A stretch of DNA of 64,000 nucleotides from a virus (IMGVR_UViG_3300022871_000011:13274-77273), one strand, 5' to 3'. Shown: positions 1,389-6,511, counted from the stretch's first letter. Translations and numbers: made by a program. Notes: a model not told the origin generated them from the letters alone.

Positions 1389-1600
1389 AAGATGATGCAT
1401 ACACCAATGCACATATGATGCTGGATGAGCTGGTGAGTATTCGAAGGAAGCACACCATTATAAGAATAGCCCTGGAGCAGGCCTCATCTAAAGGTGATTC
1501 AATGCCTGTTCAGGGTTGGAACACGGAGGCCCTCATAACAGGGGCCATGGGCAGGGGTGAGCCTTGTCTACCAGCTGGGCTCCTAGATGAGCTTACTTAA
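1364..1600 (+). CDS. hypothetical protein
   Basis: ORF with AGGAG RBS. Confidence 0.55.
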   Translation: MEAYPDPLKDDAYTNAHMMLDELVSIRRKHTIIRIALEQASSKGDSMPVQGWNTEALITGAMGRGEPCLPAGLLDELT

Positions 1601-1908
1601 AGCTCGCGCTTGTCAGGGTCTTCGTTCTTTTTAAGACGTTGTTCCTTGGCCTCGCCGACGCGCTCAATAATGTCCTTAACGATGTCCATCATGACTTTGG
1701 CATCTTTTACCTTTTCTAGCTTGGAAGCTATTACAACAAGCACCTCTGCTCGTTCGATGGCTTCCTCGATAGAAAGGATCTTGGTTTCGACTGGGTTACC
1801 AATCTCTTTAATACCGTCTTTACGTTTGCCTGTGTCATAGACCTCCAGGACAACATTACCGTTCTTGGCTGTTACGCCCTTAATGTTCGACATGTGTTGG
1901 GATTCCAT
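1597..1908 (-). CDS. hypothetical protein downstream of terminase
   Basis: GGAGG RBS immediately after the terminase stop. Confidence 0.7.
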   Translation of the reverse strand: MESQHMSNIKGVTAKNGNVVLEVYDTGKRKDGIKEIGNPVETKILSIEEAIERAEVLVVIASKLEKVKDAKVMMDIVKDIIERVGEAKEQRLKKNEDPDKREL

Positions 1909-1920
1909 AATATCCTCCGG

Positions 1921-4900
1921 TTACCAAACTACTTTCTCTGGATCAGTCGGGGCCGCTAAGGCCAGCTGCTGTTCCGTTATTGTAAACTTATCCTTGACAG
2001 TGTTCATGTCAGGGTACGATTGACGTGTGTGCCATATGGCCGAACACGCATAATTTAAAGCATGGGCAAAGTCATCACTCTTTTTGGGAGCTTTGCCTAT
2101 AAGATACATAATACCGCCTCTGGGTAATTCCCGGGGCATCTCTACAAGGTTAAGTAGATCATCCAGTACTATCTTGGATTCGTCATCATAGAACGGCAGT
2201 GAGATCTTATGTGCCCTTAACATAGCGCACATAACAGCCAAGCTCCGTGCTTTATCGATGCTGTAAGAGAACCGGGTACCGTTACCTGTAGGTGGGTTAT
2301 AGGTTATAACATCTTTGTTGGTGCTGCTAACGTATGTGTAAGGTATGATCTGATGATCGGGCAAACCTGCCTGTCTCATCAAGGATTCCCTAACATAACC
2401 TGCGCCACCATAATCATGTGCCATATAGACACACTGAAACTTGCGGAACTGATCCATGATATACATGGACTCTTCTTCAGGGCTCATACCCATGGGGAGC
2501 CTCTCAGAGTATAAGTTATCTACTACATCTGTACCGTTACGGAAACCCACGACGGCTAATGCAGTGTAGCTCTCTGATAAGTCTCCGCCACCACTCCAGT
2601 CAACACCCATAACATAACCGGAATACTGGTTGCGCAACTTAATTGTAGCAGCCATATCATTCTTATGTTTACCGGCCGCTGAGATTAAGTCGGCTTGTGA
2701 TAATAGTTTAACGTTTTCATCGCAAGGCACCCCCAGTACCTCGTTATAGAATTTAGCCTTAGAGTAGGACCCGGGACCTTCCATTTTACCGAGTAGGGCC
2801 TGCCACTTAGCTTTAATCCCATAATGAAGAGGATGTGTTACCTGGCAGAAATGATAACCAGCATGCGTGGCAGCCAAGTCAGGCCGTGCATGTACATAGT
2901 AACCCCGGCGCCCATCTAAGGTGCCCCCGCATTTGGCACATATAATAGTTTTCTTACCCAGCATCTTAATCAGGTCCTGCTCAATCGATGCTATATTCTT
3001 TTTACGACAGTGACTACAAGGGATACACCACTCCGCCATACTACTGTCGTTCCACACCACTGCAAGTGTTCCATCCGACGTCTTAGGCGTACCGGTATAT
3101 TGCTGGAAACCGAAGTACCTATTTGCACTTGTTGTTTCGAATAAAATTGGGAGGAAATCGTAGTCAATGTCTTGGCAATTAAGGCTTTGCACATTATTTG
3201 CAAGAATATAATTATGCGTTCCGACCACCTCTATATCGTAAACAGGCTGCACAGCTGTAACCTCTATTTTAGATATTCTGCTAAGGGTTACGCCTGCTCC
3301 AGCTTCCTTGCACGGTAACGCCGCTGGTTGTCCCTCAACTTTAACTTCTGACACACCTCGGCCTGGCAGACGGTGCTTGTCTTCTTGTAGAGGGGTTCCC
3401 CGCAGTACCTGCAATGGCCTGTTGGCCCTTTCGCCAGTATTTTGCGCTTGTGCCGGGCATTCGTTATAAGGCGCTGTCTTTCTTTCTCTGCAGGGTCGTT
3501 GGCAAGCCTCTCTTTCCTGCGTTGGTCCGACCGGGCATTCTGTTCTTTTACTTTGTCGGGGTTGTTCTTGCGCCACTCTTTTGTGTGCACTGCCTCTGCT
3601 TTGTGGTCCCTGCGTGCGTTGGCCTTGTCCAGCCGATCTCTGTAGCGTCCCTGGTCCTTCTTTAATTTTGCATAATACCGTTTGCGCTCCGACTGTAGAC
3701 TTGCTTCGTATGCCGGGTCTCCCTTTAGCGATGTCCGCTTGTCGCGTTTGCGTTCGTTTACAAGGTCCCTGTTGCGTTCCAGGTAGGCTGCTGCATGCTT
3801 TCTTCCCATTGCCCTGCTGTACACTAGGTCCTTGTAGTAACAGCGCCTGGCTATTATCCTGGATTGTTCCGGGTTGGCACGGCGCCACTCCGCGGACTTC
3901 TCCATTATGTATTCTTTGTTTTCTTCGTAATATTCGTGTTTGACTATGTGATCGTACTCCTCTTTGCATGCACCCTCGCATACCCATGCTCCCTTGGTTA
4001 GCTCTGCCCCGCACATTAAGCAACGGTGTTCTATACGGTTTATCTTGTAAGCCATCGGTGCAGGCATGTAAGGTGCTATCAACGGTATCAGGGTTATTGT
4101 GCCCTTCGCAGTTATGTATAGCAGAGGGTACGTGAAGACTTCCCCGTCCCTCGTTTTGTTCACCATATACACTTTGCTCTCCACACCATACTTGGCCATT
4201 AGCCATGTAGATAGCAGGTCCACTTCCTCCGGGCTGAACCCGTGAGTCGATATGCTCACAGTCCTGCGTCCGCTGTCCAGACATCCGTCGTCCCCTATCC
4301 ACCACGCTATCCCCTCGGGGGTCAGCTGTGAGAGCCACTCCGTGTTCACTAGCTTGTGATGCCCGTCCGGGCATGTTAGGGTGAAGATATAGTGAAACAC
4401 TGAGAGGGCCTGCGTCCTCCAGACACTCGACCATTCTCCGTAACCCCCGTTCTTGATCTTGTAAGGTGCTCTGGTGGCGTACTCTGCTAACAGGGCGTAC
4501 TTCTCCAGGTTGTATTGGTGCTGGCACCACCCGTGATTTGAGCGGTAACATACAGTCTGCTTGGCTGCGCTGCTTACCTGCATTGAGCCATCCCCTAGCA
4601 TCGTACCCAGTAACAGCTGCTTCTGTGATGCCGTCAAAGTCTCCGGTTTGTTTTGCATACTCATAATTTATTACCTCCGATAATCGTACAGGGCCTATAG
4701 ATGTGGGGAATGAATGATCACCCGTACACTCTATTGTTTCACCTGTCTCTAGTGTAACTTTAAAACACAGCCGCTCCCCGTGATAGGAAGCATCCTTTGC
4801 TGCGATACTATTTAACACTGTACCATCATTGTTGAAAGAATGCAAGTACTCACCTGCTTTAACTTCACAGACCTTTTTGGATGAAAAAGTCACTCCGTCA

Positions 4901-5427
4901 TAACTCGTTGATATTAAAGTATTTGCGCTGAGGCTCTCGTCAATTGCGACACATGAGATTGAGGATATGCCCCTCACACGATCGGGATTTAGGTAGCAAT
5001 ATTCTAGGAATATCATAGACCCAGAATGGAACTCTTTCGTGTAGAATTTACCCACCTCCTGGTCCGACATCATATCGCTCTTTATGAGAGAGTGTTTAAG
5101 AAGAGGCCTCAGGATGGTAGCATTATAGCGGGCCAACTGGTCAGCACGGGGCTCGATTATAAGTGTATGGAAGCCTTTGTAGTAGTGGGCCCTTAAAATA
5201 GCCTGTGCACTTAGGCTCAGACTTTTTCCTACTTGCCGTGAGCAGCAATATACAACAGATCTAGGTTGTTCAAATTCGAAGAATGGTGCCATCTGATAAT
5301 GGAGGTCAGTTGACATATGTTCTTCACCTATTTTGAACACAGGTAAGAGAGGTGCAAAGGATGTAACCCACCCCTCATCTACAGCGCGGAAGTATTCCGC
5401 AATGAATTGATTCGTATTAAGACCCAA
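1921..5427 (-). CDS. terL: terminase large subunit (GpA-like), intein-containing precursor; ~582 aa after splicing
   Basis: Walker A CSRQVGKS; Walker B AIDE/CQD split by the intein; TGTPKT motif; CxxC...CxxC; C-terminal nuclease GVDW...DDFAHALNY; TTG start with AGGAGG. Confidence 0.92.
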   Translation of the reverse strand: MGLNTNQFIAEYFRAVDEGWVTSFAPLLPVFKIGEEHMSTDLHYQMAPFFEFEQPRSVVYCCSRQVGKSLSLSAQAILRAHYYKGFHTLIIEPRADQLARYNATILRPLLKHSLIKSDMMSDQEVGKFYTKEFHSGSMIFLEYCYLNPDRVRGISSISCVAIDESLSANTLISTSYDGVTFSSKKVCEVKAGEYLHSFNNDGTVLNSIAAKDASYHGERLCFKVTLETGETIECTGDHSFPTSIGPVRLSEVINYEYAKQTGDFDGITEAAVTGYDARGWLNAGKQRSQADCMLPLKSRVVPAPIQPGEVRPVSRVRHQSTLQDQERGLRRMVECLEDAGPLSVSLYLHPNMPGRASQASEHGVALTADPRGDSVVDRGRRMSGQRTQDCEHIDSRVQPGGSGPAIYMANGQVWCGEQSVYGEQNEGRGSLHVPSAIHNCEGHNNPDTVDSTLHACTDGLQDKPYRTPLLNVRGRANQGSMGMRGCMQRGVRSHSQTRILRRKQRIHNGEVRGVAPCQPGTIQDNSQALLLQGPSVQQGNGKKACSSLPGTQQGPCKRTQTRQADIAKGRPGIRSKSTVGAQTVLCKIKEGPGTLQRSAGQGQRTQGPQSRGSAHKRVAQEQPRQSKRTECPVGPTQEREACQRPCRERKTAPYNECPAQAQNTGERANRPLQVLRGTPLQEDKHRLPGRGVSEVKVEGQPAALPCKEAGAGVTLSRISKIEVTAVQPVYDIEVVGTHNYILANNVQSLNCQDIDYDFLPILFETTSANRYFGFQQYTGTPKTSDGTLAVVWNDSSMAEWCIPCSHCRKKNIASIEQDLIKMLGKKTIICAKCGGTLDGRRGYYVHARPDLAATHAGYHFCQVTHPLHYGIKAKWQALLGKMEGPGSYSKAKFYNEVLGVPCDENVKLLSQADLISAAGKHKNDMAATIKLRNQYSGYVMGVDWSGGGDLSESYTALAVVGFRNGTDVVDNLYSERLPMGMSPEEESMYIMDQFRKFQCVYMAHDYGGAGYVRESLMRQAGLPDHQIIPYTYVSSTNKDVITYNPPTGNGTRFSYSIDKARSLAVMCAMLRAHKISLPFYDDESKIVLDDLLNLVEMPRELPRGGIMYLIGKAPKKSDDFAHALNYACSAIWHTRQSYPDMNTVKDKFTITEQQLALAAPTDPEKVVW
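3178..4935 (-). mobile_element. intein (586 codons) in the terminase Walker B motif
   Basis: Starts SLSANTLI after DE; block B CTGDHSF; blocks F/G VYDIEVVGTHNYILANNVQSLN followed by Cys; removal restores DECQD. Confidence 0.9.
3288..4664 (-). CDS. LAGLIDADG homing endonuclease nested in the +1 frame of the intein
   Basis: LLGTMLGDG and IAWWIGDDG motifs; own SD GGAGG at 4674-4678; C-terminal CxxC and basic helical region. Confidence 0.88.
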   Translation of the reverse strand: MSMQNKPETLTASQKQLLLGTMLGDGSMQVSSAAKQTVCYRSNHGWCQHQYNLEKYALLAEYATRAPYKIKNGGYGEWSSVWRTQALSVFHYIFTLTCPDGHHKLVNTEWLSQLTPEGIAWWIGDDGCLDSGRRTVSISTHGFSPEEVDLLSTWLMAKYGVESKVYMVNKTRDGEVFTYPLLYITAKGTITLIPLIAPYMPAPMAYKINRIEHRCLMCGAELTKGAWVCEGACKEEYDHIVKHEYYEENKEYIMEKSAEWRRANPEQSRIIARRCYYKDLVYSRAMGRKHAAAYLERNRDLVNERKRDKRTSLKGDPAYEASLQSERKRYYAKLKKDQGRYRDRLDKANARRDHKAEAVHTKEWRKNNPDKVKEQNARSDQRRKERLANDPAEKERQRLITNARHKRKILAKGPTGHCRYCGEPLYKKTSTVCQAEVCQKLKLRDNQRRYRARKLEQA

Positions 5428-5431
5428 ACGT

Positions 5432-6141
5432 TCCTCCTAAGTGCTTCGACAGCACACAAACTTATTATTTAATTTATTCGCATAAAGATGTTTTGTAAAG
5501 TATATTAGCATAAAATACAGGAATTGCAAATGCCGAGTCAGAGCTCAAGAGAAGCACTCAAGCGTAAAAAGCTTGATTTTAATGAATTGAATAATGATTC
5601 TGCCGGTCCTTATAAGACCCGCGGACTCATTTCCCATGACCGACCGTTTGAGGAGACGGTAGCACTACGACCTATTGACACAGTCAAGGATCGTGGGGCG
5701 ACTTTACCTCTGGACGATGGCGAGTGGAACGATTCATCTTCCAGCTCATGACACCCTCTTCAACATACACGGAGGTGTAAGTGTGAAATCGAAGAAGGAT
5801 TATGAAGGCTGAAAAGTATCTCTCAGAGGGCGGAGGTTTAGCCCTTATGGTTATTAGTGGCTTATTGCTGCTATTCTTGTTATGGGTAAGCCCTATAGCT
5901 GCAAGTTGTGCTGGCTTCGCCACCATGATATTAATACTACTCCCCCGCCTCTCCGCTAACCCGGAAACAGGTTCAGGTGTAGGTATTATAGCAGGGCTAC
6001 CGGTTATCGTAGGGTTATGCGTACACCCGGTGGTGTTCTGTGTAGCTGTATTGGCAACTTGGTGGTTAATCGTAGGACTTTCTCAGAGCCTAACCGACTC
6101 AGATTCCCCGTAACAAACACGCTGTCGAGCACCGTGGAGGA
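5432..6141 (-). ncRNA. candidate ~700-nt structured RNA / leader upstream of terL
   Basis: Nested long-range helices whose G-U pairs work only on the minus strand (ends pair; CUGAGUCGG/CUGACUCGG; GGAGAGGCGGGGG/CCUCCGCCCUCU). Confidence 0.55.
5471..5499 (-). promoter_or_regulatory. putative terL promoter TTTACA-N17-TAAATT, overlapping an AATAAATTAAA motif
   Basis: Spacing and position ~45 nt upstream of the terL start. Confidence 0.45.
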
Positions 6142-6170
6142 TTTCTTTAATTTATTAAACCGGAGATAGA

Positions 6171-6383
6171 ATGACTAATTTATTAATTTTAAGTTCGAAA
6201 GATGAGGCTGACACTGTCAGTTCTAAGGTAATGGCTAACCATGACATCGTCATACAGGCCATCGAAGACACAGGGATGTATACAATCCTGAAGAGCAGAG
6301 GCAAGACCAGGCGAGCAAAGATGAACTGGCCTGATGTATGTAAACTGCGAGTAAAGCTTGAGACAGAAATTGCAGAGGCCTAA
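6171..6383 (+). CDS. hypothetical protein
   Basis: GGAG RBS; ORF track. Confidence 0.55.
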   Translation: MTNLLILSSKDEADTVSSKVMANHDIVIQAIEDTGMYTILKSRGKTRRAKMNWPDVCKLRVKLETEIAEA

Positions 6384-6484
6384 AAACCTGCATCTCCTTC
6401 TCATACTCTTCCTCTTAACCTAATATTACAAAAGAATTGAATATTTATTCTAAATATCCCCTTCTTCTGTAGAGATTGAAACAG

Positions 6485-6511
6485 ACGCACCAGCTTTTCG
6501 GCTGGTGCGTT
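6485..6511. terminator. GC-rich hairpin, possible terminator
   Basis: GACGCACCAGC-TTTTCG-GCTGGTGCGTT. Confidence 0.45.

Follow-up and report, generated by a model that had tools for sequence, protein, structure and literature searches.

In the 64,000-nucleotide viral stretch IMGVR_UViG_3300022871_000011:13274-77273 (here called the window), which derives from a metagenomic contig of an uncultured virus, the large terminase gene terL carries an intein whose homing endonuclease is encoded in a different reading frame from terL. Very probably, this is a mobile class 1 intein at the Walker B DE/C junction of a phage terL (slashes mark splice junctions), and its endonuclease is a separate, overprinted gene rather than an in-frame domain. 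Positions given below are those of the window, and all of the features described in it lie on the minus strand. The terL precursor is a single open reading frame (ORF) of 1,168 amino acids (1921 to 5427) with a TTG start codon 5 nucleotides after an AGGAGG. The intein comprises residues 165 to 750 of the precursor (3178 to 4935), exactly 586 codons, with both junctions set by alignment with intein-free alleles; terL minus the intein encodes a large terminase of 582 amino acids. A sequence-only reading of the window had proposed that the terL frame remains open through a 586-codon intein at this position, and the ORF and the aligned junctions bear this out.

The endonuclease gene (3288 to 4664; 1,377 nucleotides, encoding 458 amino acids plus a stop) starts at offset 763 of the terL ORF, that is, in its +1 frame. 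Its ATG (4662 to 4664) is preceded, with a 9-nucleotide spacer, by the Shine-Dalgarno sequence GGAGG (4674 to 4678), and two TAA codons stand in the endonuclease frame directly upstream of the ATG. The TAA stop codon of the gene (3288 to 3290) falls at the start of the C-terminal splicing segment, before block F. Both the placement of the GGAGG nine bases before the ATG and that of the stop just before block F are as the sequence-only reading had described them. The GGAGG is built from the terL-frame codons for S-E-V in the conserved intein motif RLSEVI (4669 to 4686). The sequence ATCGGAGGT with an identical 9-nucleotide spacer is also found in a related locus (L005), and GGAG-like motifs are found in three others (L003, L020, and L023).

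The predicted product matches the Pfam family LAGLIDADG_2 (PF03161) with an E value of 1.9e-21 and a score of 77.1 bits against a cut-off of 25, in agreement with the two-motif LAGLIDADG protein that had been proposed for the +1 frame over these 1,377 nucleotides. Endonuclease residues 1 to 210 constitute an I-SceI-like LAGLIDADG core, in which motif 1, LLLGTMLGDGSM (4581 to 4616), contains D25 and motif 2, IAWWIGDDGCL (4278 to 4310), contains D125 and D126. Among 44 aligned sequences, D125 and D126 are invariant, and the D25 column shows at least 90% conservation. The AlphaFold2 model of the endonuclease has a mean predicted local distance difference test score (pLDDT) of 89.7, and Foldseek aligned it with I-WcaI (6x1j; 3.8e-14) and I-SceI (3.4e-13), the core having a template modeling (TM) score of 0.73 normalized to the target. 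By the model and these matches, the core has the double alpha-beta-beta-alpha-beta-beta-alpha fold of LAGLIDADG enzymes.

The core is followed by a confidently modeled C-terminal tail of about 250 amino acids (3288 to 3990, endonuclease residues 215 to 458), which consists, in this order, of a CxxC...CxxxC zinc ribbon (3966 to 4022), a basic region of about 180 residues that form helical hairpins and repeat an R..Y/N.E..R pattern, and another zinc ribbon (3351 to 3413). Tails of this type are present in the window copy, in P0002, and in several copies from terminase loci, and the copies in helicase genes have an N-terminal extension with CxCGCG motifs in place of the C-terminal tail. An Atlas search with the tail gave weak leads only, to the tails of phage zinc-ribbon and HNH-associated proteins. 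The tail probably binds DNA. The G+C content is ~0.53 to 0.57 over most of the endonuclease gene (3200 to 4600), with a dip to ~0.45 to 0.49 around 3800 to 4200, and ~0.42 to 0.47 in the flanking terL sequence; the AT skew goes down to -0.6 within 3200 to 4600. This high G+C content and skew fit either a foreign origin or a composition that is forced by two open frames.

The openness of two frames over the same DNA is far beyond chance. When synonymous codons were shuffled within the endonuclease gene, 14.4 stops were expected in the terL frame over the 1,377 nucleotides against the 0 observed, and none of the 20,000 shuffles reached zero stops. The third frame, which served as a control, has about as many stops as expected (35 versus 34.4), and the three antisense frames contain 7 to 20. 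A stop arises in the terL frame where an endonuclease codon ending in T is followed by AAN, AGN, or GAN; although 47 of 457 endonuclease codons overall end in T, none of the 143 that precede AAN, AGN, or GAN does. Conservation was compared by threading nucleotides onto the pairwise endonuclease alignments of 15 TerL-type copies (105 pairs). The endonuclease frame, with 35.9% identity, was the most conserved in all 105 pairs; the terL frame reached 20.1% and the closed frame 21.2%. Both frames are thus under selection, as had been suggested from the sequence of the window, albeit of different kinds: the terL frame is kept stop-free only, and the endonuclease frame is kept for its amino acid sequence.

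The terL-frame reading of the endonuclease DNA, which we refer to as filler, spans precursor residues about 255 to 713 (3291 to 4665) and contains 0 stops. G, R, Q, A, and P are abundant in it, hydrophobic residues make up only 17%, and no Pfam domain was found. In the AlphaFold model its pLDDT is ~30 over precursor residues 265 to 706, except for one helix at residues 319 to 336, in line with the non-domain filler that the stretch between the splicing blocks had been taken for. Conservation of the filler sequence is no better than that of the closed frame. Its hydrophobicity is not clearly lower than that obtained by synonymous recoding (0.172 versus 0.178 ± 0.003), so that the low value is a consequence of reading this frame, and the comparison gave no sign of any selection other than stop avoidance. 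The helix at residues 319 to 336 (window 4100 to 4470) has a pLDDT of ~80, and no other part of the filler aligns as well among TerL relatives. Rather than being a true element of structure, this stretch probably reflects a conserved region of the endonuclease frame.

On either side of the filler are the two splicing regions of the intein. The N-terminal region (4666 to 4935) is modeled as beta strands with a pLDDT of about 75 to 90; it opens with Ser1 (Ser165) of the block A-like sequence SLSANTLI (4912 to 4935), directly after ...VAIDE, and includes the block B sequence TGDH (residues 235 to 238; 4714 to 4725), which aligns with the T..DH of homologous inteins. The C-terminal region (3178 to 3290), also modeled as strands (pLDDT, 63 to 86), contains block F, VYDIEVVGTHNYIL (3202 to 3243), and block G, ANNVQSLN (3178 to 3201), whose last residue is Asn750 and is followed by Cys751. 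The features of a class 1 intein are therefore present, namely a nucleophilic Ser at position 1, a TxxH in block B, and a terminal Asn with Cys at +1. The flanks of the filler are predicted to be one Hint domain, because, in mini-intein alleles at this site, a short peptide loop takes exactly the place of the endonuclease gene. The host gene is unbroken, one ORF of 1,168 codons, and so does not have the two-part structure of a fractured gene with a split intein.

Both exteins have a pLDDT mostly above 90 in the AlphaFold model of the precursor. The N-extein (residues 1 to 164; 4936 to 5427) contains the Walker A-like motif SRQVGKS (5221 to 5241) and ends in the Walker B-like strand VAIDE (4936 to 4950), of which D163 and E164 are near-invariant across 83 aligned TerL sequences. 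The C-extein (residues 751 to 1168 plus the stop; 1921 to 3177) starts with CQDIDYDF, which places the insertion point between the Asp-Glu of VAIDE and CQDIDYDF. Intein-free alleles read ...DE-CQD... at this point and one reads DE-AQD, with Cys at +1 in most. The terL ORF gives a weak match to Pfam GpA_ATPase, and 1,180 terL homologues were found among 1.84 billion representative proteins, the best intein-free allele (P0012) having 584 amino acids and 62% identity to terL.

Several observations weigh against a functional intein with a separately initiated endonuclease. The penultimate intein residue is Leu749 in place of the usual His, the homologues having SYN, SKN, SLN, or VHN at their ends; a penultimate His in block G is common in inteins and is not universal. 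The match to Pfam Intein_splicing reached 25.7 bits against a cut-off of 35.8 and is split over residues 50 to 582. Several GC-rich relatives lack a clear Shine-Dalgarno sequence or ATG, a scan for an internal promoter gave weak 9-of-12 matches at best and none that was convincing, and internal initiation within an actively translated ORF may be inefficient.

The same arrangement recurs widely. Relatives of the endonuclease were collected from 17 viral-contig, 80 metagenome-contig, and 80 genome-contig loci (177 in total), the viral-contig loci having been reached via an alignment of homologues; pattern scans of viral contigs that used one protein at a time, the C-extein or the endonuclease, gave none. 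When the terL region was searched by megablast in the phage collection, there was no match; tblastn of the endonuclease against the same collection gave three distant matches only. No close DNA relatives were found. A second frame on the same strand is open across the entire endonuclease match in 166 of the 177 loci, including isolate cyanobacterial genomes. After removal of duplicates, the 18 TerL-type loci, in which the host frame has the same offset as in the window, have 0 host-frame stops against a mean of 10.4 expected (control frame, 15.9 versus 16.1), so that the stop avoidance for which an alignment of homologues had been proposed as a check holds beyond the window itself. The 126 helicase and DnaX loci, with the other offset, have 0 host-frame stops against 4.2 expected (control frame, 12.9 versus 13.8), and in 8 loci without a host frame the observed numbers match those expected in both frames.

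The host genes are large terminases at the window-type offset and phage superfamily 2 (SF2) helicases and cyanobacterial DnaX at the other, the endonuclease frame being +1 relative to the host in TerL and +2 in helicases and DnaX. In the TerL-type and helicase loci that were read, the intein sits at or within a few residues of the Asp-Glu of Walker B or DExH. A quick tree placed the TerL-type endonucleases apart from the helicase and DnaX types with a Shimodaira-Hasegawa-like approximate likelihood ratio test (SH-aLRT) value of 93, from which no order of events was drawn.

The lengths of TerL proteins were surveyed among the best 150 of the 1,180 representatives. An intein-free length of 540 to 699 amino acids was found in 66, and 18 have 700 to 899 amino acids, those aligned having a mini-intein at the same DE/C site with a short loop exactly where the endonuclease gene sits. 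The remaining length class of interest, 900 amino acids or more, includes 47 representatives, and 30 of these, plus P0017 (868 amino acids), share the filler shadow. In none of the 150 was this endonuclease found in frame with TerL. The closest TerL relatives, P0012 and P0029, lack the DE/C intein; P0029, the closest intein-bearing relative with 66% identity, has a conventional intein at Walker A instead (GRQLGK/C...SHN/S), and terL of this phage group is therefore targeted at two or more P-loop motifs.

Other arrangements of the same endonuclease family were also found. In L012 (3725 to 6413), a split intein breaks a phage helicase gene into two ORFs, of which the N half ends in ...CTPEHMFFTLNRGWVEA... 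and the C half starts with MKIV...VFDIEVEKNHNFF...VHN/CHH, and a member of the same LAGLIDADG_2 family stands as a separate gene (4713 to 5600) between the split-intein halves. Two inteins per gene were observed in L023 (837 to 5354; TerL, 1,506 amino acids) and L042 (2682 to 6899; helicase, 1,406 amino acids), one of them conventional with an in-frame LAGLIDADG_3 and the other overprinted with an out-of-frame LAGLIDADG_2. A few endonuclease relatives are located outside any intein. In L085 (1961 to 5413), the relative lies among other LAGLIDADG ORFs (GFVDGEGCL and GFLDGDGAI) without a protein-coding host frame, which looks like a set of intron-borne endonuclease genes in a structured-RNA gene.

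That two indels in assembly or sequencing shifted an in-frame endonuclease domain out of frame might be suspected of any metagenomic viral contig. Indels, however, cannot delete the ~14 expected stops from the other frame, the TerL survey returned no in-frame version among the best 150 of the 1,180 representatives, and the same layout is present in 166 independently assembled loci, those of isolate cyanobacterial genomes included. Because it recurs in so many independent assemblies, an indel artifact is untenable. RNA-level removal, by a group I or II intron with its own endonuclease ORF inside an intein-like region, would agree with the typically intron-encoded nature of I-SceI-type LAGLIDADG genes and with the few relatives, as in L085, that lie among other LAGLIDADG ORFs outside protein genes. 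A search of 1500 to 6500 gave no Rfam match at E values up to 1, and no group I or II core was found around the ORF. Moreover, removal of the RNA would not require an open terL frame, and the mini-intein alleles with a short peptide loop at the exact point show the flanks to belong to what is best read as one Hint domain; an intron is highly improbable.

If ribosomes were programmed to shift by +1 into the endonuclease frame and later to return, the product would be an intein-endonuclease fusion of the conventional kind; the ORFs are nested on one strand, and frameshifting is common among phage genes. However, the two TAA codons before the ATG and the TAA before block F mean that both shifts would have to be placed precisely, no slippery motif was observed, and the canonical Shine-Dalgarno spacing points to initiation. 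A terL frame open for 459 codons would not be needed either, yet it is kept in every TerL-type locus, and we regard frameshifting as very unlikely. Somewhat more could be said for the endonuclease frame being a relic, in which case the element would now behave as a fixed mini-intein whose long loop is a passenger, and the +1 ORF would have ceased to be expressed or to function. The mini-intein alleles show that loss of the endonuclease is possible, one relative has a host-frame stop, and others have shortened endonuclease ORFs (L058, L066, and L147). In the window, however, the ORF remains intact over its 458 codons, against 35 stops in the third frame, it retains its own Shine-Dalgarno sequence and ATG, and its product has a confident model with both motifs and the catalytic Asp residues conserved. 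Sequence conservation is furthermore limited to the endonuclease frame, and the absence of the intein from the closest TerL relatives points to recent mobility, so that a relic is unlikely.

Inteins with an endonuclease in another frame have been reported more often than the sequence-only reading allowed in speaking of only occasional alternate-frame cases, since the layout has been described from 1998 onward and in two recent preprints. Gorbalenya 1998, as cited in the preprints, described non-canonical inteins, among them that of Synechocystis DnaX. Phillips, DeSimone & Gogarten 2026 (bioRxiv 10.64898/2026.09.14.751524) reported a cyanobacterial dnaX intein with a LAGLIDADG gene in the +2 frame and a Shine-Dalgarno sequence, a disordered in-frame reading, and a frame-specific ratio of nonsynonymous to synonymous substitution rates (dN/dS), the source of the endonuclease not having been found. 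The window endonuclease is of the same family, with ~30% identity over the core and some 80 cyanobacterial loci in which the host ORF is DnaX where checked, and it has the I-WcaI-like fold for which the preprint also uses 6X1J. In both systems the endonuclease gene shares the strand of its host gene and is enclosed by the splicing halves, with a Shine-Dalgarno sequence upstream, the in-frame reading is disordered, conservation is specific to the endonuclease frame, and full, mini-, and empty alleles coexist. In contrast to the DnaX intein, the host gene in the window is a phage terL, the offset is +1 rather than +2, the endonuclease has a C-terminal tail of ~250 amino acids, and the intein starts with Ser. 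Because its endonuclease is a homologue of the DnaX endonuclease, the intein in the window is a further member of the known inteins with an out-of-frame endonuclease.

For actinophages, Gosselin, Arsenault & Gogarten 2025 (bioRxiv 10.1101/2025.01.02.630785) reported inteins, including in terL, with the endonuclease in a non-intein frame, the types being an antisense LAGLIDADG, an antisense VSR-like, and a sense frame-3 endonuclease VII-like enzyme. These inteins resemble that of the window in an in-frame reading without recognizable structure and in their proposed origin from a free-standing endonuclease gene that invaded an intein. A sense-strand LAGLIDADG_2 in terL is not among the types reported there, and the family found in the window is from uncultured phages rather than actinophages. 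The fractured genes of Dassa et al. 2009, as cited in later work, consist of split inteins whose two halves are separated by a free-standing endonuclease gene. As in that description, the endonuclease in the window is a separate gene at the usual position of the endonuclease domain, and the L012 helicase has the fractured layout with an endonuclease of the window's family; unlike the fractured genes so described, the host frame in the window is stop-free throughout, which makes for a contiguous intein with predicted splicing in cis. The ShiLan insertion (Arsenault et al. 2025; PMC11855218) lies in a phage DNA methylase, hides an HNH gene in another frame, and is likewise an endonuclease gene overprinted on an insertion that is open in the host frame. 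ShiLan, however, has no splicing domain and stays in the protein, whereas the window element is flanked by what is predicted to be a complete Hint domain. The window provides one more case of a rare layout that has already been described. Two points appear to be new relative to the literature searched, namely the kinship of the DnaX endonuclease with the copies in phage TerL and helicase genes and the almost invariable overprinting of this lineage.

For the overprinted intein, the following course of events is proposed. Ribosomes reading terL would traverse all 586 intein codons, ~459 of which are the -1 reading of the endonuclease gene and would encode a loop that is both hydrophilic and disordered. 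Around it, the N-terminal and C-terminal Hint halves would fold and then splice in cis by means of Ser165, TGDH, Asn750, and Cys751 to yield the 582-amino-acid TerL. Other ribosomes would initiate at the internal GGAGG-N9-ATG in the +1 frame and produce a free I-SceI-type LAGLIDADG enzyme of 458 amino acids with its zinc-ribbon and helical tail. During co-infection, the endonuclease would cut intein-less terL alleles at DE/CQD, and repair would copy the intein and the endonuclease gene together as one mobile unit. Translation of both frames, splicing, and cleavage specificity are all predicted here from sequence features. The endonuclease's own Shine-Dalgarno sequence and ATG and the stops upstream of it are the grounds on which its expression would be decoupled from terminase synthesis.

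With regard to origin, a free-standing endonuclease gene may have invaded a mini-intein, as had also been proposed in the sequence-only reading, because the position of the mini-intein loop, the split-intein layout of L012, and the copies outside inteins all fit such an event. The lineage may also have moved among the Walker B DE/C sites of three unrelated P-loop ATPases (TerL, helicase, and DnaX) and between phages and cyanobacteria. It could further be speculated that this LAGLIDADG_2 lineage is overprinted as a rule and that the out-of-frame state is a stable, favored design rather than a brief intermediate toward an in-frame domain, because overprinting was seen at nearly every one of the 177 loci, the TerL representatives surveyed included no in-frame copy, and two frame offsets occur; this broader interpretation is tentative, and we consider it doubtful.

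The window offers a clean and quantified case in which two proteins would be drawn from one 1.4-kb stretch under selection of two sorts, one frame being kept stop-free only and the other being kept for its amino acid sequence. Such inteins are common in uncultured phages: of the 47 long TerL cluster representatives, at least 30 show the layout. Annotation would treat the TerLs that contain them as ordinary long terminases or as inteins in decay, and the lesson is that intein filler should be checked in all frames. The comparison ties the DnaX endonuclease to overprinted copies in TerL and helicase inteins of phages, as well as to a locus with a split intein, which supports the gain of endonucleases by inteins through invasion of free-standing genes. 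If the lineage did move in this way between ATPase genes and between phages and cyanobacteria, the phage copies would be the missing relatives of the DnaX endonuclease, the source of which the 2026 preprint did not find.

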